Origin: Elusimicrobia bacterium CG1_02_37_114
GTDB lineage: Bacteria > Elusimicrobiota > Endomicrobiia > CG1-02-37-114
Reading direction: 5' to 3'
DNA: 14,218 bases
Assembly: GCA_001871125.1 (NCBI GenBank)
Contig: MNXB01000049.1
Coordinates: 1-14,218, forward strand
In this document: piece after piece, positions 1 to 12,763 of the stretch
Position numbering within the stretch: the stretch's first letter is position 1
Layout of the letters: each line of letters opens with the position of its first letter
Position numbers and translations under genes: made by a program
Notes under the pieces: model-generated
Seen by the model: only the letters and a program-made list of their open reading frames with translations
Told to the model about the DNA's origin: nothing
Databases searched by the model: none

Positions 1-608
1 CAATATTCCATGAAGATGATGATTTTAAGTATTTTTTGAAGTTGCTAAAAGAGAATAAAGATAAAAGTGATATTAAGATATATCATTACATTTTGATGAA
101 TAACCATGTACACATAATATTAAAAGCAGTAACAGGTAAATCACTAAGTGAAACATTTAAAAGGATAAATATCAGTTATACGCTATATTACCGAAGGAAA
201 TACAAAGGTGTTGGACATTTCTTTCAGGACAGGTTCAAAAGTTTTTTGATACAGGATGGTAAGTATCTACTTGAGTGTGGTAGGTATATTGAAATGAATC
301 CTGTTAAGGCAGGTTTAGTAGCAGAACCCGCCCAATATAAATGGAGTAGTTATAGAGTATATGCAAATGGTGAACATGATAGTATCGTTGACATAAATCC
401 TGAATATGAATCATTAAGTAATGACAAAGAAAAAAGAGAAGTGATATATAAAGAATATGTGAAAGATAGTAATTTAGACAGAAGAAATGAAGGAAGATAT
501 TTCAAGATAGGTGCTTACGGTTCGAAAAATTTTATAGAAATGCTGAATGAAAAAGGATTGAAGTCTGCGTGGTCACATAGCGGTCAACCCAAGAAGAAGT
601 CAGAATAA
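1..608 (+). mobile_element. 5'-truncated HuH/Y1 tyrosine transposase (IS200/IS605 TnpA or RAYT-like, COG1943-type). The reading frame is open to base 3, so the true N-terminus lies upstream of the window.
   Basis: Extending the frame to the window edge gives IFHEDDDFKYFLKLLKENK..., then IKIYHYILMNNHVHIIL (the HuH motif, HVHII), FQDRF, YIEMNPVKAGLV and the C-terminal YKWSSY tyrosine motif. These are typical of Y1 transposases. Stop TAA at 606-608. Confidence 0.75.
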
Positions 609-612
609 GTAT

Positions 613-630
613 TAGAACCGTCCCCATTCT
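613..630 (-). repeat. One copy (reverse complement) of the GC-rich motif AATGGGGACGGTTCT, immediately 3' of the transposase stop.
   Basis: gaaccgtccccattc at 616-630. Its reverse complement matches 5613-5627 over 15/15 bases and 5315-5325 over 11/11. Confidence 0.45.
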
Positions 631-1604: not shown

Positions 1605-1618
1605 GGTGAGTGGGAATT

Positions 1619-2518
1619 ATGGACAATAAGGAATTTCTTAAAACAGTTGACATTTTCAAAAATTTTTCAGAAACATCTATGCAAAAAATAATATCTGCGG
1701 CTGAACTCGGTAACTATCCTGCCGGTAAAGTAATATTTTTTGAAGGAGATCCCTCCAGTCATCTTTATATAATTGTTACCGGGCAGGTAGAGATAACAAA
1801 AAAAATATCCACTGAATCAGAAAAAATGTTATCTGTTCTTGGAATCAGGTCTATTTTTGGTGAAATGAGTCTGTTTTCTAATGAGCCAAGGACAGCAGGA
1901 GCCAGAACAAAAACATTTATGAATTATTATAAAATCCATCGCGATGTTCTCCTGGGAATATTTGCTACTGACCATAAAGGTGCATCAGAAACATTCAGGT
2001 TATTATTATTGACGACACTTCAAAGATTAGAGGAAACTGACCGTGAGCTTGCAACAGTTTATGAGATAAATCAGTTAATGGTAAAAGGATTGACATTAAA
2101 AGAATTCTGTCGGGCGGTTATTAAACTATTAAACTATTCTGTTCCGAAGGTTGATTCGGGATTAATCTATGTTTTTGATGAAGGTGTACAGGGATATAAC
2201 CTGCTGGGTAATGTTGGAATAGATAATGCCCCGTTGATTCTTCCGGCTATTTCTCCGATAGTGCGGTCGGTAGGGAACAAGATAATTGGCGGTAGGATTG
2301 AATCCACGATAATTGATGACCCCGGAGTTATATATCAGATGATGAAAAACATTTCTCCTGCAGAAACATTGATGGTCCTGCCACTGGCTAAAAAGAATAA
2401 CCTGATAGGGTTTGTCTTATTGTTGAATAAAAAAGAAAGGATATCTCATAGTGAGAGCACGGTAGATTTAATTAACTCCATAGCGGTTCAACTTTCCAGT
2501 GCAATCGAAAGACAGTGA
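1619..2518 (+). CDS. Cyclic-nucleotide-binding (CAP/Crp-type cNMP) domain fused to a GAF-like domain. No recognisable output domain. The ORF track starts at GTG 1610, but ATG 1619 with RBS AAGGTGAG is the more likely start.
   Basis: N-terminal half: IFKNF...YPAGKVIFFEGDPSSHLYIIVTGQVEI...FGEMSLFSNEPRTAGARTKT, matching the cNMP pocket FGE..L.....R.A...A. C-terminal half, LIYVFDEGVQGYNLLGNVG...LMVLPLAKKNNLIGFVLLLNK, is GAF-like. It sits 14 nt after the oppD-like stop and 16 nt before the oppF-like start. Confidence 0.6.
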   Translation: MDNKEFLKTVDIFKNFSETSMQKIISAAELGNYPAGKVIFFEGDPSSHLYIIVTGQVEITKKISTESEKMLSVLGIRSIFGEMSLFSNEPRTAGARTKTFMNYYKIHRDVLLGIFATDHKGASETFRLLLLTTLQRLEETDRELATVYEINQLMVKGLTLKEFCRAVIKLLNYSVPKVDSGLIYVFDEGVQGYNLLGNVGIDNAPLILPAISPIVRSVGNKIIGGRIESTIIDDPGVIYQMMKNISPAETLMVLPLAKKNNLIGFVLLLNKKERISHSESTVDLINSIAVQLSSAIERQ

Positions 2519-2534
2519 GATATAATTTTGTTGA

Positions 2535-3284
2535 ATGTTGAGACCTGACCCCGTACCTATTTTAGAACTTAAGAATGTAACCAAATGTTTTAAAAAGTTT
2601 ATCGCTGTTGAGGATGTTTCATTTAAAGTTTTACAGGGAGAAATACTGGGGCTTATCGGGGAATCCGGCAGCGGTAAAACAACGATAGCAAAACTGATTG
2701 TAGGACTTCACAGACCTGACAGTGGAGAGATAATTATTGATGAATTAGCATCAAAAATACAACTGATATTCCAGGACCCTTATTCTTCTTTGAATCCAAA
2801 ACTTTCAATCGGGACTATAATAGGCGAAGTAATACACAGACGCTGTATGAATGATAATACAAAACTGTCACGAAAACAGATAGTTGAAGAAGCAAAAGAA
2901 TATCTTAATATTGTTGGTTTACCAATCAATATTCTGGACAATTATCCGCATCAGTTTTCCGGCGGACAGAGACAGCGGATAGCAATAGCCCGGGCCCTTG
3001 CCCTTAAACCAGGACTTATTATTGCTGATGAACCGCTGTCACAACTTGATGTCTCAATACAGGCACAGATAATAAATTTGTTTATGGAACTCAAGGAAAA
3101 ATATGGTCTTTCATATGTTTTTATTTCACATGATTTGCTTGTAGTGAACACTCTTTCCGATAGAATACTTATAATACAAAATGGCAGAATAGTTGAAGAA
3201 AATTCACCTGACAGGATTTTTCAAACACAGTCCACTGACTATACCAGAAGACTGGTTACCTCCCTGCCAGGATTTGATTTATAA
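2535..3284 (+). CDS. ABC transporter ATP-binding protein of the oligopeptide/dipeptide type (OppF/DppF-like).
   Basis: Walker A GESGSGKTT, FQDPYSSLNP, signature FSGGQRQR, Walker B IIADEPLSQLD, H-loop ISHDL. Shorter than the upstream ATPase, with no Oligo_HPY tail, which is the OppF-like pattern. Confidence 0.85.
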   Translation: MLRPDPVPILELKNVTKCFKKFIAVEDVSFKVLQGEILGLIGESGSGKTTIAKLIVGLHRPDSGEIIIDELASKIQLIFQDPYSSLNPKLSIGTIIGEVIHRRCMNDNTKLSRKQIVEEAKEYLNIVGLPINILDNYPHQFSGGQRQRIAIARALALKPGLIIADEPLSQLDVSIQAQIINLFMELKEKYGLSYVFISHDLLVVNTLSDRILIIQNGRIVEENSPDRIFQTQSTDYTRRLVTSLPGFDL

Positions 3285-3300
3285 GCGTAAGGAAATTATA

Positions 3301-3385
3301 ATATAAAAGGGTAAACCCTTAATTCCAGGAATTTATATAAAAGGGTAAACCCTTAATTCCAGGAATTTACCCTTTAGGGTTTTAC
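3301..3385. repeat. REP-like structured intergenic repeat, locus 1. It is a perfect 34-bp tandem duplication (3301-3334 = 3335-3368) of atataaaagggtaaacccttaattccaggaattt, followed by a second hairpin module accctttagggtttta.
   Basis: Read directly from the sequence. Each unit carries the hairpin AAGGG-taaa-CCCTT and the palindrome AATTCCaGGAATT. The trailing ACCC-ttta-GGGT is followed by TTTTA. It lies between the oppF-like stop and the cca-like start. Confidence 0.8.
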
Positions 3386-3390
3386 TTAAA

Positions 3391-4806
3391 ATGAATATAA
3401 AAAATATTATCAAGATATTATCTGGAAAAACAAAACCTGGCCAGAAAATATACCTGGTTGGCGGATTCCTGCGGGATGTTTTATTGAAAAGAAAAACCAA
3501 TGACCTGGATTTTGTTGTAAACAAAAATATTCGGGATTTTGTAAATAGCATAGCTTTGAAACTCAAAGGCAAAGTTATAATACTTGATGACCGGAACCGT
3601 ATATACCGCATAATCGTTTCAGGTAGCGACGGGGAAACCTGCAATTTAGATTTTTCACACATGCAGGGAAAAAATATTCAACTGGACTTAGATAGAAGAG
3701 ATTTCACGATAAATGCAATGGCAATGGATATAGAACACAAAGACATTATAGACCCATTCGGTGGTATTAAAGATTTAAATAATAAAATCATACGCAAAGT
3801 GTCGGACAGAATATTTAACGATGACCCGTTGAGGTTGCTGCGTGCATACAGGTTTCAGGCAGAATTAGGGTTTGACATTGAGCAGGATACCAGCAAACTG
3901 ATAAGAAAATATGCAAGGTTTATTAAGAAACCGGCAAAAGAAAGAGTCCGATACGAACTATTGAAGATACTCCAGACCAACGACTCATCAAAAATCGTTG
4001 ATGTCCTTGATAAACAGAAATTACTGGAACCAATCTTTCCTGAAATACTTGTTATGAAAAAAAGTGCCCGCAGGTTTTATTTTCATCCCGAGGGATTATG
4101 GCAGCATTCAAAAGAAAGCCTGGTAAGTCTGGAGATAATATTAAAAAATGTCAAAAAACTTTTCCCTCAATCTTCAGAAAAAATTATCAGGCATATAACG
4201 CCAAGAATAGGGCTAATCAAATTCATTACTTTGTTCCATGATTTAGCAAAACCTAAATCCATAAAAAGAATAAATAACAGAATAAGATTTTTCGGCCATG
4301 AGAGAGAGGGAGCGAAAAAAATCGCCAGGATTATGGGACGGTTAAAATTCAGTAACAAAGAAATATCTATTGCAGAGAAAATTGTAAAAAACCATATGAG
4401 ACCGGGAAATTTACTGCAGGCAAAAATACTTACTGAACGCGCAATATATCGTTTCTTCCGGGATTTGGGTGATGAAACCGTTGATTTGTTATTGCTTTCC
4501 TTTGCTGACAGGCATTCTTATCTAAAAATCAGAGCTACCAAAAAGGAAGTCTCTGACTATAAAAAATTTGCCGGGTTAATGATTGAAAAATTTTTTAAAC
4601 AAAAAGAACTGGAAAAGAGGGAAAAAATTGTCAACGGACATATAATAATGAAGAAATTCGGTCTAAAGCCAGGTCCGATAATTGGCAAATTATTAAAAAT
4701 TGTTGAGGAAAACTATATATTGGGGAAAATAAAAACCACAGAACATGCCTTAGAGTTTATAAAAACTAAATGCAAAAGATTGCTGAGAAATTTACAAAAC
4801 TCTTGA
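3391..4806 (+). CDS. cca: tRNA nucleotidyltransferase / poly(A) polymerase family protein with a C-terminal HD domain (CCA-adding enzyme-like).
   Basis: N-terminal head IYLVGGFLRDVLL (GGxxRD), DLDF, RRDFTINAMAMDI, DDPLRLLRAYRFQAELGF. C-terminal HD region HPEGLWQHS...FHDLAKP...GHE. Confidence 0.7.
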   Translation: MNIKNIIKILSGKTKPGQKIYLVGGFLRDVLLKRKTNDLDFVVNKNIRDFVNSIALKLKGKVIILDDRNRIYRIIVSGSDGETCNLDFSHMQGKNIQLDLDRRDFTINAMAMDIEHKDIIDPFGGIKDLNNKIIRKVSDRIFNDDPLRLLRAYRFQAELGFDIEQDTSKLIRKYARFIKKPAKERVRYELLKILQTNDSSKIVDVLDKQKLLEPIFPEILVMKKSARRFYFHPEGLWQHSKESLVSLEIILKNVKKLFPQSSEKIIRHITPRIGLIKFITLFHDLAKPKSIKRINNRIRFFGHEREGAKKIARIMGRLKFSNKEISIAEKIVKNHMRPGNLLQAKILTERAIYRFFRDLGDETVDLLLLSFADRHSYLKIRATKKEVSDYKKFAGLMIEKFFKQKELEKREKIVNGHIIMKKFGLKPGPIIGKLLKIVEENYILGKIKTTEHALEFIKTKCKRLLRNLQNS

Positions 4807-4831
4807 CAATACAAGTTTTGTCTTGTATAAT
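4803..4831 (+). promoter_or_regulatory. Perfect-consensus sigma70-type promoter TTGACA-17 nt-TATAAT with an inverted repeat TACAAG-n6-CTTGTA in the spacer (candidate operator), upstream of the XRE regulator gene.
   Basis: TTGACA at 4803-4808, a 17-nt spacer, TATAAT at 4826-4831. The palindrome tacaag (4810-4815) / cttgta (4822-4827) overlaps the -10. The -35 overlaps the TGA stop of the cca-like gene. Confidence 0.5.
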
Positions 4832-4873
4832 AATAGTAGGTGAAGGATGTTAAAAAATTATGAGGTGACTGAA

Positions 4874-5200
4874 ATGACAAACATTAGACTAGAAAAAATT
4901 GATTTTCATTTGAAGAAAAAATTGAAAAACAAAGAGTTCAAAAAATACTTTAAACTAGAAAAAGATAAAGTAGAACTGGCACAAAAAATATCTGAACTAA
5001 GGCAAGAGAAAAATTTAAAGCAAGCTGACCTTGCCAAAAGACTACATGTTTCTCAACAGTTTATTTCTCAGATTGAGACTGCTCAAGAAAATAATCTAAC
5101 AATAGATACTTTATTGAAGTTAGCTGAATCATTAGGTAGAAGTGTTGAGATTTCATTTCCTAAAGTATCTAAACAACATAATAGACTTATTGTTGCTTAA
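4874..5200 (+). CDS. XRE-family (Cro/C1-type) helix-turn-helix transcriptional regulator. Antitoxin-like or mobile-element repressor context. An in-frame alternative start exists at 4847.
   Basis: HTH LKQADLAKRLHVSQQFISQIETAQENNLTIDTLLKLAESLG. The RBS GAGGTGA at 4862-4868 lies 5 nt before ATG 4874. Confidence 0.7.
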   Translation: MTNIRLEKIDFHLKKKLKNKEFKKYFKLEKDKVELAQKISELRQEKNLKQADLAKRLHVSQQFISQIETAQENNLTIDTLLKLAESLGRSVEISFPKVSKQHNRLIVA

Positions 5201-5312
5201 GATTTTTTTGATTTTCAAAAAATCTTTTGCTATTATAATACATTACTAATTACGTAAATATTCACTCGCTGATGTCAAGGGTTTGACAAATTACTTTTTG
5301 TTTAATGTGTGA

Positions 5313-5325
5313 ATAATGGGGACGG
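5313..5325 (+). repeat. Partial copy of the AATGGGGACGG motif, overlapping the RBS region of the PIN-like remnant.
   Basis: aatggggacgg at 5315-5325, an 11/11 match to the other two copies. Confidence 0.4.
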
Positions 5326-5339
5326 AGGTAATTAAAACT

Positions 5340-5645
5340 ATGAAAAAACTTAAAATATATCTTGATACTTCTGTGATAAATTTCTTATTTGCTAATGATG
5401 TCCCTGAAGAAAAAGTAATTCCACCGCAAAAGATTGAAGATGCACAGCACATTGCCATTTCAACCTGTAACCAAATAGATATTCTTCTATCATGGAACTT
5501 CAAACATCTGGCTAATATACAGAAACAGATTTATGTTAAAATAGTAAATGAAAAAGAAGGTTATTTTTATCCGTTGATTTTAACAAATCCAATGGAGGTT
5601 ATATATGAGAAAAATGGGGACGGTTCTGATACTTTGGGAAAGTAG
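5340..5645 (+). pseudogene. PIN-domain-like nuclease remnant. The N-terminal strand and the C-terminal half are present but the middle roughly 60 aa appear to be deleted in frame.
   Basis: MKKLKIYLDTSVINFLFAND is a PIN N-terminal D-containing strand. It is joined after about 10 aa to ...EDAQHIAISTCNQIDILLSWNFKHLAN...EGYFYPLILTNPMEVI, which reads like a PIN C-terminus. RBS GGAGGT at 5325-5330, 9 nt before ATG 5340. This is too short for a complete PIN fold. Confidence 0.4.
5611..5628 (+). repeat. Copy of AATGGGGACGGTTCT inside the 3' end of the PIN-like remnant. It is the exact reverse complement of 613-627.
   Basis: aatggggacggttct at 5613-5627 equals the reverse complement of 613-627 (15/15), and 17/18 when extended. 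Confidence 0.45.
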
Positions 5646-5670: not shown

Positions 5671-6216
5671 ATGGATATGGTTAAATTTGAAGATGTAGCA
5701 AATAAAGTTCTTGAGTTACGGGGAGAAAGAGTTATTCTTGATAGTGATGTCGCCAAACTTTATGGTGTCCAAACAAGGGATATAAATAAGGCAGTTAAAA
5801 ATAATTCGGACAAGTTTCCTGAGGGTTATATTTTTGAACTTAATAAAGTGGAATTTGAGGATTTGCGGTGTAAATTTTCCACCGCAAAATTTGCCAAAAC
5901 CCGGGTTATACCCAAGGCCTTTACTGAAAAAGGGTTATATATGTTGGCAACAATTCTAAAAAGCTCGCAGGCTACGCAGACAACAATAGCGATTATTGAA
6001 ACTTATGCAAAACTTCGGCAACTTACAAGGAATATAAAAGAACTTTCTGTTACCAAGAATAAAGGGACACAAAAATCACTTATGCAAAAAAGTGGGGGTT
6101 TGATAACGGAAATTCTTGACGATGGATTGAAAACATCTGGGAGTGAAACCACGATAGAGATTAACTTTGCCGTATTAAAACTCAAACATACTATTAAAAA
6201 AACAAAAAAGTATTAG
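5671..6216 (+). CDS. ORF6N-domain protein (KilA-N/antirepressor-related DNA-binding family typical of phages and conjugative elements).
   Basis: VILDSDVAKLYGVQTRDINKAVKNNSDKFPEGYIFELNKVEFEDLRCKF...RVIPKAFTEKGLYMLATILKSSQATQTTIAII matches the ORF6N signature LDxDLAxLYGVxTKxLNQAVKRNxxRFPxDFMFxL...P.AFTExGVxMLSxVLxS..A..VNI.I. Confidence 0.7.
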   Translation: MDMVKFEDVANKVLELRGERVILDSDVAKLYGVQTRDINKAVKNNSDKFPEGYIFELNKVEFEDLRCKFSTAKFAKTRVIPKAFTEKGLYMLATILKSSQATQTTIAIIETYAKLRQLTRNIKELSVTKNKGTQKSLMQKSGGLITEILDDGLKTSGSETTIEINFAVLKLKHTIKKTKKY

Positions 6217-6278
6217 AAATGCCATAAGATTGGTGACAGTTCTTAATTAAACGAATTATGAATTTTAGGAGAAAATCT

Positions 6279-7395: not shown

Positions 7396-7460
7396 ATAAA
7401 ATTTCGGATTGCTAAATGATAACTGGGTCCGGGGTTACAGGCAAATCCCGGAGGTTAAAT

Positions 7461-7481
7461 AATGGTCGGGCCGCCATTTTG
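7461..7481 (+). terminator. Weak candidate rho-independent terminator downstream of the PorV-like ORF: hairpin AATGG-tcgggccg-CCATT followed by TTTT.
   Basis: 5-bp stem (7461-7465 / 7474-7478) plus a T-run. It is part of a GC-rich patch, 7423-7476, that is unusual for this AT-rich window. Confidence 0.25.
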
Positions 7482-7541: not shown

Positions 7542-9005
7542 ATGTGGACGAAAGAGAATTTACAGGAAATGCTCAAACAAAAATTAGAAGGATACCAATT
7601 CATGGTTGTTTCAAACAGAGAGCCGTACAGTCACGAATATGAAGGACGTAAAATAAAATGCTTTAAAGCCATAGGCGGTTTGGTTACCGCCCTGGACTCC
7701 GTATTACAATCTACGGGAGGTACCTGGATAGCATATGGTTCAGGTGATGCAGACAAAGACGTTGTTGATAAAAATGATATAGTCAGGATGCCGGTAAATA
7801 ATCCCAGGTATAACCTTAAACGAATATGGTTGACGAAAGAAGAAGAAAATGATTTTTATTATGGTTATTCAAACCAGGCATTGTGGCCGCTCTGTCATAT
7901 TGTATACAGGCAACCTTTATTTAATGTTTCGCATTACAATACATACTTAAACGTAAACAAGAAATTCGCTGCTGCTGTGTTGGACATTGCCGGTAAAGAA
8001 AAATCGTTTGTATGGACACAGGATTATCAGATGTGTTTAGTTGCCAAATTTATAAAAGAAGCCAACCCCGGAATAATTACGGCACTCTTTTGGCACATAC
8101 CATGGCCAAATCCGGAAGTGTTCAGAATATGTCCGCAAAAAATTGAAATCATGGAAGGTTTATTGAGTAATGATTTATTAGGGTTTCATATACATTATCA
8201 TTGCCACAGGTTTCTTGAGGCTTGTGAACAGGAAATTGAAGCGAAAGTACAGTGGGAAGAAATGTCCGTTACCTATAAAGGTCATACTACTTTGGTAAGG
8301 CCGTTTCCAATAAGCATTGATACTCAAAATGTAGCTTCACAGGCAAACTTACATTTTGTAAAAAATGAAATTGACAATTTACCAGACGAAATAGACCCTC
8401 CGTATGAAATCCTTGCGGTTGGCGTGGATAGAATTGATTATACCAAGGGGATAGTAGAAAAACTATATGCAATTGACAGGTTTCTTGAAAAATACCCGCA
8501 ATATCAGGGTAGATTTGTCTTTTTTCAACAGGGAGCATTGAGCAGGTTACATATCAAATATTATAAGGAATACATTGATAGAATACAGGCCCTTACTGAA
8601 GAGATAAACTGGAAATACCGTTGCGGTAAATGGTATCCGATTGTACTTAACAATAGAAGAACAGAATATTACAGACAACTTGCATTATACAGAGCAGCGG
8701 ATATATGTATTGTGAGTTCATTACACGATGGTATGAATCTTGTATCAAAAGAATTTGTTGCTTCAAACACGGATTTTAAAGGTATGTTAATACTATCAAA
8801 ATTTACCGGTGCATCAAGAGAACTTAAAGAAGCGATTTTAATCAACCCTTATGATATAGAGAATTTTGCTGATTCTATAAAGGAAGCAATAGAATTGTCT
8901 CAGGATGAGAAAACAAGCCGTGTAAAGAAAATGCAGGAAACAATTGAAGAAAACAACGTTTACAAATGGGCAGGCAAATTTATTGAAAATCTGGCTAAAT
9001 TATAA
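7542..9005 (+). CDS. otsA: Alpha,alpha-trehalose-phosphate synthase (GT20 family, OtsA-like). A related GT20 sugar-phosphate synthase such as glucosylglycerol-P synthase cannot be excluded.
   Basis: GT20-like motifs: VVSNREPY, GGLVTAL, YYGYSNQALWPLCH, FWHIPWP, LLGFHIHYH, GVDRIDYTKG, SSLHDGMNLVSKEF, ILINPYD. RBS GGAG 8 nt upstream. Confidence 0.7.
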   Translation: MWTKENLQEMLKQKLEGYQFMVVSNREPYSHEYEGRKIKCFKAIGGLVTALDSVLQSTGGTWIAYGSGDADKDVVDKNDIVRMPVNNPRYNLKRIWLTKEEENDFYYGYSNQALWPLCHIVYRQPLFNVSHYNTYLNVNKKFAAAVLDIAGKEKSFVWTQDYQMCLVAKFIKEANPGIITALFWHIPWPNPEVFRICPQKIEIMEGLLSNDLLGFHIHYHCHRFLEACEQEIEAKVQWEEMSVTYKGHTTLVRPFPISIDTQNVASQANLHFVKNEIDNLPDEIDPPYEILAVGVDRIDYTKGIVEKLYAIDRFLEKYPQYQGRFVFFQQGALSRLHIKYYKEYIDRIQALTEEINWKYRCGKWYPIVLNNRRTEYYRQLALYRAADICIVSSLHDGMNLVSKEFVASNTDFKGMLILSKFTGASRELKEAILINPYDIENFADSIKEAIELSQDEKTSRVKKMQETIEENNVYKWAGKFIENLAKL

Positions 9006-9019
9006 TTAAATTTTAATTT

Positions 9020-9793
9020 ATGAATTATCTGTATAATAACAAGACTATATTGAGAAAGATTAAAAAAAGTAATAAGATTTTACTTTTTCTTGATTATGAC
9101 GGTACGCTTACGCCCATTGTTTCAAAACCCGAAGCAGCAGTTTTATCGCACAGAACAAAAAAAATACTTAAAATATTATCAAATGATTGCAGGTTTATAT
9201 TGGTCGTCATAACAGGACGTTCTGTTTCCGACATAAAAAAACTTGTTGGGATAAACAGGATTATATATATTGGCAACCATGGGTTCGAAATAAAATTACC
9301 CGGCAAGGATATACTCTCTCCGGGAGACACAAAGAAACTGATGAAAGAAGTCAGTGCAGATATTAAATGTAGAATAAAAAACGTAATGGGAGCGTACCTT
9401 GAGGACAAAGGATTGACCCTGAGTTTACACTGGCGTAATGTAGATAAAGCGGATAATACTAATTTGAGAAAAATAACTAGAGGAATTAAGGAAGATTATT
9501 CCTCCAGATTAAGGTTTATTAAAGGCAAAAAAGTTTTGAATCTCGTCCCTCTGTCCGGGATAGATAAAGGGAAAATAGTGAATGCACTTTTAACACAGAC
9601 TGTTTCAACCCGGAATAACGTCTCTATCGTTTATATAGGCGACGATGTAACCGACGAATATGCTTTCAGAGAATTGAAAGGGAAAGGCATAACAATACGT
9701 GTAGGCAGGAATATTAAATCAAGTGCCAGGTATTATTTAAATAATACCGGCGAGGTCTATAAATTCTTATATTTCCTAAAGAGAATGTATTAA
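9020..9793 (+). CDS. otsB: Trehalose-6-phosphate phosphatase (HAD-IIB, OtsB-like).
   Basis: HAD motif I FLDYDGTLTP, motif III K...NLVPLSGIDKG, motif IV IYIGDDVTDE. Immediately downstream of the GT20 synthase. Confidence 0.7.
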   Translation: MNYLYNNKTILRKIKKSNKILLFLDYDGTLTPIVSKPEAAVLSHRTKKILKILSNDCRFILVVITGRSVSDIKKLVGINRIIYIGNHGFEIKLPGKDILSPGDTKKLMKEVSADIKCRIKNVMGAYLEDKGLTLSLHWRNVDKADNTNLRKITRGIKEDYSSRLRFIKGKKVLNLVPLSGIDKGKIVNALLTQTVSTRNNVSIVYIGDDVTDEYAFRELKGKGITIRVGRNIKSSARYYLNNTGEVYKFLYFLKRMY

Positions 9794-9794
9794 T

Positions 9795-10256
9795 ATGAAA
9801 ACTAAGGATATTATGACTCAATCTGTAACCACAATTACACGGGAAACAACTCTGAACAAAATACTTGATATTTTTAAAAATTTTCATACTTTTCCAATAG
9901 TACCTGTAATTGACGAAAATAAAAAACTTATCGGAGTTATTTCTCTAAAAAATATAGTAGAGATATTTGAACCTACAAAAAGTACCCTGATAAAATCAGC
10001 GCCATTCATTGACCAGAAGGAAGTAGATTTATTTGAATTAGAAATTACTGATGAAATGAAGCATTTATGTATAGCTGAAGATATGATGGAAAGTAAATTC
10101 GTTACATTGAATGAAGAAATGGATTTGAAAGAAGCATATAATCTTATGAGATTACATAATTTAGAGGAGATACTTGTAGTGAATAAAGAAAATATATTAG
10201 TAGGAAGGGTAGGTGTTTTTGATATAGTCCGTACAGTGTTTGTAACTAAAAAATAG
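9795..10256 (+). CDS. Tandem CBS-domain (Bateman) protein. Its start codon is 1 nt after the otsB stop.
   Basis: Two CBS-like segments: DIMTQSVTTITRETTLNKILDIF...IVPVIDENKKLIGVISLKNI and FVTLNEEMDLKEAYNLMRLHNLEEILVVNKENILVGRVGVFDIV. Confidence 0.7.
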   Translation: MKTKDIMTQSVTTITRETTLNKILDIFKNFHTFPIVPVIDENKKLIGVISLKNIVEIFEPTKSTLIKSAPFIDQKEVDLFELEITDEMKHLCIAEDMMESKFVTLNEEMDLKEAYNLMRLHNLEEILVVNKENILVGRVGVFDIVRTVFVTKK

Positions 10257-10266
10257 CAGATAAAAT

Positions 10267-11472
10267 ATGAATACCTTATTAACTTTAGGCGTAATTTTTC
10301 TATCGGCACTTGTACTTGCTAAGGTAATAGATAAAATAAAGCTTCCTTCTGTGACAGCATATTTATTATTAGGACTTTTAATTGGTTATTCCTTTTTTAA
10401 CATTATTCCTAATGAACTTATAAAAGCTACTGATTTAATTTCAAATATAGCATTAGGATTTATTGCATTTTCTATAGGCAGAAACTTCTCCTTCGATACT
10501 TTTAAACGGATAGGTAAGTCAATAATGTGGATTTCTATATTAGAAGCATCGGGAGCATGGTTAACTGTTACAATTTTATTCTTTTTGTTATTAAAACAGC
10601 CTATTTATATATCTCTCTTGTTTGGAGCTATATCTGCTGCAACAGCACCTGCGGCAACGGTTATGGTCGTGAGAGAATATAAGGCAAGAGGAAATTTTAC
10701 CAATGTACTTTTAGGAGTAGTTGCAATTGATGATGCATGGTGTTTAATAATATTTTCTATTTCGCTTGCTATTGCTAAGGCTTTGAATATCCCCGGAGTA
10801 AATCCTCATTTGATAAGAGTAATATTTAGCTCAATAAAAGAAATATTTGGTGCGCTTATACTTGGCGGAATCGTTGCTTTCATTATGTCTGTTTTAATAA
10901 AACACATACGAACACAGACAGAATTTCTTATATATACATTAGGATTTGTGTTGCTTAACACCGGGTTGGCTATATTGCTGCATTTTTCAGTTCTGCTCAG
11001 TAACATGTTTCTTGGAACGGTGATAATAAATATCAACAGAACAAGTGATAAATTTTTTGATACTTTAAGCAGTATTGATTCACCAATATATCTTTTATTC
11101 TTTGTCCTTGCAGGTGCAAATTTCGAGCTATCAGCATTAAAAAACATTGGTTTATTAGGGATATGTTATATAATCTTCCGTGTATCCGGTAAAGCATTAG
11201 GCGGATTCTTAGGCGGACAGATTTCCCAAGCACCTGAGAATGTAAAAAAATATATCGGATTAGGTTTGATTCCGCAGGCTGGTGTAGCACTTGGTTGTGC
11301 ATTGATAGCAAAAGCGAATTTTCCTTCTGTTGGTAGATTTGTATTCAATACAGTAGTTGCTACAACAATTATATATGAAATTATAGGTCCAATATGTACA
11401 AAACTTGCTCTACAAAAAGCGGGAGATATACCAACTTTTGTCAGTAAACCCATTGAACAGAAAAACATCTAA
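10267..11472 (+). CDS. Cation:proton antiporter (CPA2 / Na_H_Exchanger family, KefB/NapA-like membrane domain). It has no fused RCK/TrkA regulatory domain.
   Basis: Polytopic membrane protein, about 12 hydrophobic segments. LLLGLLIGYS, ALGFIAFSIGRNFSF, VAIDDAWCLIIFSISLA, GLIPQAGVALGCALIA are CPA-like signatures. Confidence 0.7.
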   Translation: MNTLLTLGVIFLSALVLAKVIDKIKLPSVTAYLLLGLLIGYSFFNIIPNELIKATDLISNIALGFIAFSIGRNFSFDTFKRIGKSIMWISILEASGAWLTVTILFFLLLKQPIYISLLFGAISAATAPAATVMVVREYKARGNFTNVLLGVVAIDDAWCLIIFSISLAIAKALNIPGVNPHLIRVIFSSIKEIFGALILGGIVAFIMSVLIKHIRTQTEFLIYTLGFVLLNTGLAILLHFSVLLSNMFLGTVIININRTSDKFFDTLSSIDSPIYLLFFVLAGANFELSALKNIGLLGICYIIFRVSGKALGGFLGGQISQAPENVKKYIGLGLIPQAGVALGCALIAKANFPSVGRFVFNTVVATTIIYEIIGPICTKLALQKAGDIPTFVSKPIEQKNI

Positions 11473-11490
11473 TGCTCGGGAGGCGACTAT

Positions 11491-12543
11491 ATGTTAAAAG
11501 ATATTTTAAGCACCTCTTTCTTAGATAATCGTATTTCAGACTACATACTTTTTATACTAATTTTTATCGCAGGTATATTAGTAATTAGAATACTTAAAAA
11601 CATCATTTTAAGTCGTCTTAAAAAATGGGCAAGTAAAACCACCACTACATTGGATGATTTTTTAATTCATGCATGTGAAAAAATATTGATTCCTTTATTG
11701 TATTTTGGTATTTTTTACCTGTCCCTGCAAAACCTGAACGTAAATCCCTCATTAATTAAAGTTATACAGGTACTGGGTATCGGTTTATTGACTTTCTTCG
11801 GTATTCGTTTTGCAGTATCAATGCTCAGTTATATAATTGACTCATATTTATCAAAGAAAGAAGCAGATACCACCAAAACACAAGGTATAAAGGTAATACT
11901 TCCTGTACTAAAAGTAGTTATATGGGGTATAGGCATTACTTTTTTATTAGATAATTTAGGATTTAAAATTTCAACTGTAATTGCGGGTTTAGGTATCGGC
12001 GGTGTAGCAGTCGCTTTAGCAGCTCAGGCAATTTTAGGCGACTTATTCAGTTATTTTGCCATACTTTTTGATAGACCATTTGAAATTGGTGATTTTATCA
12101 TTATTGGAGATTGCCTGGGAGTTGTGGAACATATTGGAATTAAAACTACGCGTATCCGCAGTCTCGGCGGAGAACAGTTAGTATTTTCCAATAGCGACCT
12201 TACTAATTCCCGTGTCCGCAACTATAAAAGGATGGAAAGACGCCGTGTAGTTTTTAAACTCGGCGTCACCTATCAAACCACTCTTCAGCAATTAAAAGAA
12301 ATACCGATAATAATTGCCAATATTATAAAAAATACTAAAAACGTAGAGTTTGACCGGGTACATTTTTTCTCGTACGGTGATTTTAGTCTTATTTTTGAAA
12401 TAGTTTATTATGTTCTCAGTAGTGATTATAACAAATATATGGATGTCCAGCAGGAAATTAATTTTGCAATCAAGGAAGGGTTTGAAAAACAAAAAATAGA
12501 GTTCGCTTATCCGACACAAACACTGTATTTGACAAAAACATAA
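11491..12543 (+). CDS. Small-conductance mechanosensitive channel (MscS family).
   Basis: Pore helix and beta-domain LGIGGVAVALAAQAILGDLFSYFAILFDRPFEIGDFIIIGDCLGVVEHIGIKTTRIRSLGGEQLVFSNSDLTNSRVRNYK, preceded by three TM helices. RBS GGGAGG. Confidence 0.8.
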   Translation: MLKDILSTSFLDNRISDYILFILIFIAGILVIRILKNIILSRLKKWASKTTTTLDDFLIHACEKILIPLLYFGIFYLSLQNLNVNPSLIKVIQVLGIGLLTFFGIRFAVSMLSYIIDSYLSKKEADTTKTQGIKVILPVLKVVIWGIGITFLLDNLGFKISTVIAGLGIGGVAVALAAQAILGDLFSYFAILFDRPFEIGDFIIIGDCLGVVEHIGIKTTRIRSLGGEQLVFSNSDLTNSRVRNYKRMERRRVVFKLGVTYQTTLQQLKEIPIIIANIIKNTKNVEFDRVHFFSYGDFSLIFEIVYYVLSSDYNKYMDVQQEINFAIKEGFEKQKIEFAYPTQTLYLTKT

Positions 12544-12558
12544 ATTAGTAGTTACTTA

Positions 12559-12626
12559 GGAATTCACCCTTTAGGGTTTTATCCGCAGGATTATCTAATT
12601 TATAAAAGGCTAAAGCCTTAATTCCG
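12559..12626. repeat. REP-like structured repeat, locus 2. It is a diverged copy of the 3301-3385 element with the two hairpin modules in swapped order, a circular permutation, flanked by GGAATT...AATTCC.
   Basis: ggaattcaccctttagggtttta at 12559-12581 versus ggaatttaccctttagggtttta at 3362-3384. tataaaaggctaaagccttaattcc at 12601-12625 versus tataaaagggtaaacccttaattcc at 3302-3326. The stem pair G:C changes to C:G (AAGGG/CCCTT to AAGGC/GCCTT), which preserves the hairpin. Confidence 0.75.
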
Positions 12627-12763
12627 TCAAAAAAGAAATTCCTATACTATTAAATTAAAGCTTTTGGCTCAAGATTGGGGGTGATGAAAAAAACTAAAAG
12701 AGATTGTTAATTCGGAAAAACATTTCCGAGAGTAGTCTAATAATTACAAAAGGAGGCAGAAAA

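Follow-up and report, generated by a model that had tools for sequence, protein, structure and literature searches.

A RAYT-like HUH/Y1 gene carried between terminal inverted repeats inside the oppABCDF operon of an Elusimicrobial genome

Introduction

Which repeat does a RAYT-like gene belong to when more than one repeat family lies close to it? This question is raised by contig MNXB01000049.1 of Elusimicrobia bacterium CG1_02_37_114 (assembly GCA_001871125.1), of which we studied a stretch of 14,218 nucleotides on the forward strand (the window, i.e., the whole stretch of DNA analyzed) that opens inside a gene for an HUH/Y1 protein. The original prediction, made from the letters of the window alone, took this gene for a RAYT that may serve a family of REP-like hairpins in the same DNA, and placed it directly upstream of an ABC-ATPase operon, possibly interrupted by it, that lacked its permease and binding-protein genes. 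Our analysis partly confirms the observation and partly supports the interpretation: the 226-amino-acid class 2 HUH/Y1 gene is the one gene of a 752-bp TIRtron, i.e., a unit bounded by terminal inverted repeats, and is of the type named TIRYT, TnpA-Y1 subclass 2.1 or RAYT Group 1 by different authors.

Results

The gene at the window edge encodes a RAYT-like protein

Frame 3 is free of stop codons from nucleotide 3 to a TAA at 606-608 and encodes 201 residues, with the first 25 codons lying beyond the window edge. Using the neighboring ABC ATPase as a look-up, we retrieved longer contigs from the same population (30-62 kb), on one of which (L001, 9293-9973) the complete gene encodes 226 amino acids; we refer to this window gene as Y1c. 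GenBank lists the window fragment as OIO75032.1, a "hypothetical protein, partial". The features of the gene within the window are as follows.

3-608, forward strand: Y1c coding sequence, residues 26-226 and the TAA stop, from the translation, PF01797 and the full-length gene on L001
105-113, forward strand: HuH motif H60-V61-H62 in NNHVHII, aligning to H59-M60-H61 of 4ER8
285-287, forward strand: predicted catalytic Y120 in CGRYIEMNP, aligning to the catalytic Y115 of E. coli TnpA-REP
336-353, forward strand: YKWSSY, the "SS" tail motif; its counterpart in 4ER8 is DWPFSTF, which follows the catalytic helix

The original prediction of an edge-truncated HuH Y1 gene, longer than an IS200 TnpA, holds: the Pfam model Y1_Tnp (PF01797) matches the window protein at E 2e-10, the HVH triplet is in place, and the full gene has 226 amino acids against a median of 152 (PMC6006769). 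Its description as RAYT-like is also borne out, by the Y---NP signature, by profile scores and by structure comparison. The NCBIfam model REP_Tyr_transpos gives 78.7-80.6 bits, which is borderline at its cut-off of 80, and transpos_IS200 gives 17-18 bits against a cut-off of 55. When the family profile was compared with solved structures, the sole convincing match was E. coli TnpA-REP (4ER8, E 9e-7), and the AlphaFold model (predicted local distance difference test score 85.5) has 4er8_A as its best Foldseek match (E 1e-8, TM 0.75), ranking above the ISDra2, IS608 and IS200 transposases, with the top 30 matches all being TnpA-REP or IS200-family proteins. On its motifs, its profile scores and its predicted fold, the window protein is a RAYT-like HUH/Y1 protein and not an ordinary IS200 transposase.

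One motif was assigned differently. The original prediction had taken Y.WSSY as the tyrosine motif; since the catalytic Y115 of E. coli TnpA-REP (4ER8; PMC3479197) aligns onto Y120 of RYIEMNP, we read YKWSSY as the tail motif and not as the nucleophile. Y120 lies on a predicted helix (112-127) and is invariant, as is H60-V-H62, in both of our homologue alignments (A1, n = 28; A2, n = 35); H60, H62, Y120, N124, Y137, W139 and S141 are all invariant in 28 homologues, with P125 present in the consensus. The window protein carries the subclass motifs NNHVH, GHFFQDRF, RYIEMNP and KWSSY. The tail of the 226-amino-acid protein has no Pfam match beyond Y1_Tnp and is modeled with helices at 167-208, and the tail of a 307-amino-acid paralogue shows a faint DnaA_C match, with a DnaA match at E 2.8e-4 in a separate comparison. 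The family is very large, with 32,482 clusters at E<=1e-3 and 12,931 at E<=1e-10 (50%-identity representatives).

Inverted repeats bound the gene inside a complete opp operon

The window differs from a composite of the longer contigs L001 and L090 at 35 of 14,218 positions, with window position 1 corresponding to L001 position 9366. On L001 the order of genes is oppA (SBP_bac_5), Y1b (the 307-amino-acid paralogue), oppB, oppC, Y1c, oppD, a gene for a cyclic nucleotide monophosphate (cNMP)-binding protein, and oppF. A second 226-amino-acid paralogue, Y1a, sits 9 kb further upstream on this extended contig, with a NYN/YacP gene on one side and a radical-SAM gene on the other. Three Y1 units, including that of the window, therefore lie within about 10 kb, and two of them split the opp operon without breaking it: across the longer contigs oppABCDF is complete, with three interruptions and zero genes lost. 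The original prediction was right that the gene sits inside the operon; the permease and binding-protein genes appeared to be missing because the window edge cut the operon, with oppA, oppB and oppC located just upstream of it. The parts of the operon that border on or follow Y1c in the window are listed here.

607-633, no strand assigned: right terminal inverted repeat AAGTATTAGAACCGTCCCCATTCTTTT, inverted partner of the left repeat at L001 9247-9273
636-1604, forward strand: oppD-type ABC ATPase (ABC_tran and oligo_HPY domains), directly downstream of the Y1c unit
2535-3284, forward strand: oppF, placed by the operon order on the longer contigs

The repeat that actually flanks the gene, AAGTATTAGAACCGTCCCCATTCTTTT, had been overlooked. 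On the longer contigs the Y1c unit measures 752 bp between the inverted repeats AAAGWATGGGGACGGTTCT and AGAACCGTCCCCATTCTTT, and it is fitted closely to its neighbors. The left repeat supplies the final codons of oppC and its stop codon, which lies inside the repeat (C-terminus ...DPKVWGRF*), and the right repeat overlaps the last two stop-codon bases of Y1c and ends 2 nucleotides before the oppD ATG; the unit is co-oriented with the operon. Examination of the extended contig showed that Y1a, Y1b and Y1c are each flanked by inverted repeats with a GGKGACRG core. These terminal repeats are about 19-27 bp long, with the core GGGGACGGTTCT; the two units encoding 226 amino acids (Y1a and Y1c) start with AAAG(A/T)ATGGGGACGGTTCT(A/G)AT... 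on the left and finish with ...AGAACCGTCCCCATTCTTTT on the right, and Y1b, whose repeat reads ATGGTGACAGTCTTTAC, is bracketed by a perfect 27-bp inverted pair, CATGGTGACAGTCTTTACTTATTTACA.

A local alignment of Y1a with Y1c showed that the limits of their homology are the exact outer ends of the repeats, giving units of 756 and 752 bp, respectively, with unrelated sequence outside. We looked for a target-site duplication at the ends of these two units and found none, and no tnpB was found next to any Y1 copy on the extended contig. The Y1a and Y1c coding sequences are 86% identical at the nucleotide level, with dN 0.09, dS 0.54 and dN/dS 0.17, and from these values we conclude that the copies are old and under purifying selection.

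Two further observations concern this region. A 12-nucleotide tandem duplication, CCCCATTCTTTT, is present at the outer edge of the Y1a right repeat (L001 819-842). The third interruption of the operon is the cNMP-binding gene (1610-2518, forward strand), wedged between oppD and oppF with gaps of 5-16 nucleotides; it has no flanking repeat, and its protein gives a weak GAF_3 match that is below threshold.

The repeat core is conserved across phyla

We fetched 80 homologue loci from species-representative genomes, 56 of which had usable flanks, and for each locus took the best inverted repeat between the 200 nucleotides upstream and the 200 nucleotides downstream of the gene. These loci come from Elusimicrobia, Deltaproteobacteria, Nitrospirota, Omnitrophota, Planctomycetia, Candidate Phyla Radiation (CPR) groups and Firmicutes. 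Among the carriers of the family are genera that can be cultivated, for example, Sporomusa, Metabacillus and Alkaliphilus (loci L065, L067, L069 and L075). The best inverted repeat contains GGGACGG in 39 of the 56 loci and the shorter GGGAC in 50, and we counted 140 occurrences of the 10-mer GGGACGGTTC in 428 kb, where 0.8 would be expected. A literature search for this 10-mer returned unrelated primers only.

In many lineages (loci L013-L044, e.g., L018 2449-2480), TTGACA directly follows the left core at a fixed distance, about 55 nucleotides before the ATG. TTGACA is absent from this position in the window organism and its close relatives L007, L009 and L030, and in these four the left repeat begins merely 32-39 nucleotides from the ATG. 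The upstream neighbor is co-oriented with the Y1 gene in 14 of the 15 loci checked, with gaps of 11-43 nucleotides in the closest Elusimicrobial relatives.

Complementarity between the two flanks of the core

In Firmicutes, the core lies between complementary arms of 7-10 bp, for example, AGGAAGCA-TGGGGACGGTTCTT-ATGCTTCCT in L067. Pairing was examined more widely in 144 distinct instances of the core in a single register, position i of the 5' flank being compared with position i+1 of the 3' flank. Over positions 1-7 the flanks form 59% Watson-Crick pairs, against 34-39% in other registers and 41.2 +/- 1.3% (maximum 44%) when 3' flanks were permuted among instances, and several pair types occur at each flank position. 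When each of 54 loci contributed one instance, the figure was 59.5%, against 43.0 +/- 2.1% and a maximum of 51% in 1000 permutations, and 13 different stems reached a length of 5 bp or more; over both samples, other registers gave 33-42%; since the instances are phylogenetically related, these permutation figures are not to be read as probabilities. The stems of the window organism are AAAGAAT/ATTCTTT or AAAGTAT/ATACTTT. We regard self-complementarity of the flanks as a genuine tendency that is strong in certain lineages but only marginal in the window organism; it could mark either a hairpin in single-stranded DNA or a palindromic binding site in double-stranded DNA.

Copies of the repeat also occur alone, in pairs and in arrays

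The repeat occurs in several subtypes (GGGGACGGTTCT, GGGGACGGAGGT, GGTGACAGTCT and GGGGACACATC). There are 9 copies of the repeat in the 32-kb composite, and the related contigs, which total 607 kb and are partly redundant, contain about 19 distinct copies. Three solo copies lie in the window, each in left-end orientation.

5312-5337, forward strand: solo copy of the second subtype, AATAATGGGGACGGAGGTAATTAAAA, just upstream of a PIN-like open reading frame (ORF)
5609-5635, forward strand: solo copy of the window gene's own subtype, GAAAAATGGGGACGGTTCTGATACTTT, upstream of an ORF6N gene
6229-6250, forward strand: solo copy ATTGGTGACAGTTCTTAATTAA, of the GGTGACAG subtype and resembling the Y1b repeat, before the next ORF

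The first of these is of the GGGGACGGAGGT subtype and shares 19 consecutive bases, AATGGGGACGGAGGTAATT, with the repeat of a homologue in Elusimicrobia UBA5214 (L007). For the second, a repeat finder reported 92% complementarity between 5610-5634 and 607-631, and there is an exact 14-mer match. In related contigs, repeat pairs without a gene between them are found at L097 2375-2655 and L106 1767-1860. Inverted core doublets resembling REPINs lie near the homologues in a Peregrinibacteria genome (L011: 695-745, 1229-1280 and 2386-2436) and in a Planctomycetia genome (L041: 2386-2442 and 3079-3135). Upstream of three other homologues, tandem arrays consist of three to five left-end units with 30-58-bp spacing.

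L037 2280-2460: tandem array in an Omnitrophota single-cell genome
L067 2238-2330: tandem array in Metabacillus
L073 1959-2050: tandem array in a Clostridia metagenome-assembled genome

The strain contigs show one structural difference at a repeat. A 17-nucleotide tandem duplication, TGAATAATGGGGACGGA, is present in L002 and L094 at window 5306-5322; it ends at ...GGGGACGGA, inside the core of the first solo copy, and is the only structural difference between strains in the three intergenic regions compared.

The solo copies in the window lie among several small genes. An HTH_3 gene (4847-5200) has a promoter at 4803-4831 that matches the sigma-70 consensus at 12 of 12 positions, and it is followed by the PIN-like ORF (5340-5645, forward strand; KIYLDTSVI..., no Pfam match) and the ORF6N-domain gene (5671-6216, forward strand), a region that looks like an accessory-gene islet. 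We considered a role for solo left-end repeats as gene cassettes or portable ribosome-binding sites; few of the approximately 14 such repeats precede ORFs, and the idea was dropped as a general rule.

A separate hairpin family is unrelated by position to the Y1 gene

The two structured palindromic repeats on which the original prediction rested are present, at about 3301-3385 and 12558-12633, and exceed chance expectation.

3301-3385, no strand assigned: hairpin cluster, two 34-nucleotide units followed by ACCCTTTAGGGTTTTA; fold z-score -2.4; identical in 11 strain contigs
12558-12633, no strand assigned: second hairpin cluster, modules in permuted order, with the compensatory stem change GGCT/AGCC

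Allowing up to 3 mismatches, AAGGGTAAACCCTT has 7 matches against 1.7 expected, a number reached in 0 of 200 shuffles. A third cluster of modules is located 4.2 kb past the window in the opposite orientation (L090, about 16930-17030), giving three loci in 32 kb. The modules are AAAAGGGTAAACCCTTAATTCC, GGAATTYACCCTTTAGGGTTTTA and TCCNNNAGGAT, and one stem changes in a compensatory manner, from GGGT/ACCC to GGCT/AGCC. In groundwater metagenome contigs, a scan with AATTYACCCTTTAGGGTTTTA matched at least 119 stretches, and the 80 loci listed comprise at least 63 distinct sites; the family is therefore abundant elsewhere, and was not absent as the original prediction had allowed it might be. The modules are shuffled among these sites and their stems covary (GGGT/ACCC, GGCT/AGCC, TGCT/AGCA and GTCT/AGAC), and the clusters do not vary between strains. 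The modules show neither a GTAG nor a CGTC tag, the terminator scan did not call them as forward-strand terminators, and a search of Rfam with the whole window at E up to 1 matched nothing at either the repeats or the hairpins, its sole match being the nhaA-I riboswitch described below.

The proposed pairing of the RAYT with these hairpins (ACCCTTTAGGGT / AAGGGTAAACCCTT) is not supported by what stands at the gene ends. On the extended contig, no hairpin flanks Y1a, Y1b or Y1c, each of which has inverted repeats with the GGKGACRG core, and the Y1 gene of L135 is flanked by repeats with the core GGGGACAC. The 607 kb of loci chosen by their hairpins contain three Y1 genes (at the window locus, L120 and L135), none of which adjoins a hairpin. 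By position, the hairpin family and the Y1 gene are unrelated.

Two hairpin arrangements were looked at individually. A candidate for a hairpin pair bracketing a transposase, as in a REPtron, was rejected: what lies within the inverted pair in L132 is a gene for a histidine kinase and a coiled-coil ORF, and the pair overlaps the end of the gene for the response regulator that is the partner of the enclosed kinase. In L097, the gene-less repeat pair encloses a truncated hairpin module, which we read as a chance meeting of two intergenic residents.

Relation to known systems

Di Nocera, De Gregorio and Rocco (2013, PMC3733652) gave the names TIRYT and TIRtron to RAYT-like genes set between terminal inverted repeats, with the common motif GGGGWSAS, and reported that the repeat families are moderately abundant and occur as singles, dimers and clusters. 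Most TIRYTs fall into TnpA-Y1 subclass 2.1 of Quentin et al. (2018, PMC6006769), which is RAYT Group 1 of Bertels et al. (2017, PMC5581495). Subclass 2.1 is described (PMC6006769) as having NHVH, FQ/W[EQ], YIELNP and an SS tail motif, a median of 238 amino acids, a C-terminal extension resembling a helix-turn-helix (HTH; Bac_DnaA_C, HTH_23 or HTH_28), divergent copies that average 1.9 in each genome, and "no REP". Class 2 as a whole carries the signature Y---NP in place of the Y---Q of IS200 subclass 1.1 (PMC6006769), and its genes are generally of low copy number with divergent copies (PMC6006769; PMC5581495).

The locus studied here agrees with the TIRYT description in its RAYT-like Y1 gene, in the GGGG-A/T-C/G terminal inverted repeats at roughly fixed distances and sometimes overlapping the gene ends, and in the single, dimeric and clustered copies of the repeat. 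It differs in its core, GGGGACGG(TTCT), with G and not A at position 7 of GGGGWSAS, in host phyla that lie outside that survey, and in having units inside an operon with a left end that has no TTGACA box. Agreement with subclass 2.1 and RAYT Group 1 extends to the motifs NHVH, FQ, YIE(L/M)NP and SS, a length of 226 against about 238 amino acids, a broad and patchy taxonomy, a genomic copy number of about two, with the copies divergent, and an extension at the C-terminus (faintly DnaA_C-like, with an HTH, in the 307-amino-acid paralogue), although the tail of the 226-amino-acid form has no Pfam match. Quentin et al. reported no REP-like structure near such genes, whereas the core flanks examined here are significantly self-complementary. 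Both this self-complementarity and the tight, co-oriented placement in Elusimicrobia without TTGACA go beyond the publications examined.

Compared with E. coli TnpA-REP (4ER8; PMC3479197), which is its best match in sequence and fold, with aligning HuH and catalytic tyrosine, the window protein is extended by a tail of about 85 amino acids and is not single-copy, and there is no long REP hairpin with a GT[AG]G tag. As in the E. coli REPtron, the gene is bracketed by inverted cognate repeats; unlike a REP, the conserved element lies between complementary flanks, i.e., at the loop position, and not at the stem foot. At the flanks where canonical RAYTs and REPtrons (subclasses 2.2, 2.4, 2.5, 2.7 and 2.8) are recognized, we find repeats of the GGGGACGG type and no GTAG-tagged hairpin. 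The HUH/Y1 fold, the lack of a target-site duplication and the orientation bias relative to neighboring genes are shared with the IS200/IS605 TnpA proteins of IS608 and ISDra2, from which the present units differ in having Y---NP and not Y---Q, inverted ends, no tnpB and divergent copies. The separate hairpin family resembles REP, BIME and REPIN sequences, being made up of short intergenic palindromes in many copies with covarying stems and mosaics of modules in either orientation, and differs from them in having no GTAG/CGTC tag, no adjacent RAYT and no Rfam match.

Discussion

How the unit may act, and what else could explain it

The identity of the protein, its intact catalytic residues, the unit bounded by repeats, the placement in the operon, the conservation of the core, the derivatives of the repeat and the purifying selection are observed at this locus and its relatives. 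The explanation that we consider likely takes the window to open inside this TIRtron set within oppABCDF, on whose repeats the protein would act in the manner of TnpA-REP, IS608 and ISDra2. By analogy with these enzymes, each repeat would be recognized in single-stranded form, its 12-nucleotide core held between short complementary flanks, and the protein would cleave and rejoin the DNA there through a metal bound by H60 and H62 and through Y120. The inverted ends would lead to action on opposite strands at the two ends, and segments bounded by the repeats may be moved or copied without a target-site duplication. Since the Elusimicrobial left end has no TTGACA downstream of the core, expression is probably by read-through from the host operon, and the co-orientation with neighboring genes could stem from strand-specific insertion at replication forks or from selection for such read-through.

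Several observations weigh against this explanation. The paralogues are old (dS 0.54), giving no sign of recent movement, and among the strain contigs examined there are no empty sites and no presence-absence variation, the unit being at the same place throughout. REP_Tyr_transpos scores at its NCBIfam cut-off and not clearly above it. The core GGGGACGG matches the published GGGGWSAS at 7 of 8 positions, with G for A at position 7, and the exact motif occurs in only 6 of the 56 loci; the Y1b core GGTGACAG is also a 7 of 8 match, and the core of the L135 gene (GGGGACAC) is exact. The stems of the window organism are weak (-0.2 to -4.3 kcal/mol, z-scores mostly near 0). In the literature examined, no biochemical activity is reported for any TIRYT or subclass 2.1 protein, and nothing on this subclass was found when publications since 2021 were searched for functional studies of TnpA-Y1, TIRYT or RAYT Group 1.

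Because the unit is fixed in all strains and the paralogues are old, we take as a serious alternative, if a rather unlikely one, the view that the gene is a TIRYT by descent and now a fixed, domesticated host gene, with its repeats serving as protein-binding or regulatory sites and nothing moving any more. The gene is found at the same site in every strain contig, its paralogues are old and under purifying selection (dS 0.54, dN/dS 0.17), class 2 genes generally have a low copy number and divergent copies (PMC6006769; PMC5581495), many lineages have a TTGACA box after the left repeat, and the self-complementary flanks could equally be the site of a double-stranded DNA-binding dimer. What speaks against this view is that three units occupy unrelated sites within 10 kb, that the homology of the paralogues ends exactly at the repeat ends, and that the repeat also occurs as gene-less pairs, doublets, tandem arrays and solo copies, with small duplications at the motif. 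That the gene is instead a canonical single-copy RAYT spreading the ACCCTTTAGGGT / AAGGGTAAACCCTT hairpins as its cognate REP/BIME is, in our judgment, improbable. The protein is RAYT-like, the hairpins form a genuine and abundant family of structured repeats whose stems covary, and in L097 the two kinds of repeat do meet; however, hairpins flank 0 of the 6 Y1 genes examined (Y1a, Y1b, Y1c, L115, which is Y1c on another contig, L135 and L120), and inverted repeats of the GGGGAC type flank the Y1 genes wherever both flanks are visible. The hairpins also have no GTAG/GTGG tag, the Y1 gene is not single-copy, and the nearest hairpin is 2.7 kb away. We give almost no credence to the view that the contig edge has merely cut through an ordinary insertion sequence of the IS200/IS605 type, for which the PF01797 match, the weak match to the IS200 model and the multi-copy neighborhood could be cited; against it are Y---NP in place of Y---Q, an IS200 score of 17-18 bits where the cut-off is 55, a length of 226 and not about 150 amino acids, inverted ends in place of subterminal hairpins in the same orientation, the absence of tnpB, and copies that are 86% identical and not near-identical.

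Other features of the window

All genes of the window lie on the forward strand; its sequence is AT-rich (28-46% GC), and the GC skew is positive along its whole length. A full-length nhaA-I RNA, of an Rfam family typed as a cis-regulatory riboswitch, is present at 7425-7479 on the forward strand (54.3 bits against a gathering score of 37, E 1.3e-8). Downstream of it, 7542-12543 holds an apparent run of osmotic-stress genes, encoding a trehalose-6-phosphate synthase, a trehalose phosphatase, a CBS protein, a Na+/H+ exchanger and MscS.

Implications

The arrangement described here is already known from two papers (PMC3733652 and PMC6006769), and its interest is modest. Its value is mainly one of correction: a "hypothetical protein, partial" in GenBank can be named, the true partner repeat of the gene is identified, and the pairing of this RAYT with a REP-like family is coincidental. 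No function is reported in the literature examined for this very large family. The conservation of the core from Firmicutes to the CPR, together with flanks that tend to pair, may point to recognition of a hairpin-like element in a group for which none has been reported. We would tentatively extend the likely TIRtron explanation as follows, while regarding the extension as possible and on balance doubtful: in the largest RAYT group, REP-less in the literature, the terminal inverted repeats may be the equivalents of REPs, small stem-loops with a 12-nucleotide loop (GGGGACGGTTCT) that is conserved across several bacterial phyla and read by the enzyme as single-stranded DNA; the solo, doublet and tandem copies would be REPIN-like passengers; and the Elusimicrobial unit without TTGACA would persist by lying co-oriented within host operons such as opp, whose transcription it would borrow. 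With three units in 10 kb, two of them inside one intact operon, this genome offers a convenient natural test case for dependence on host transcription.

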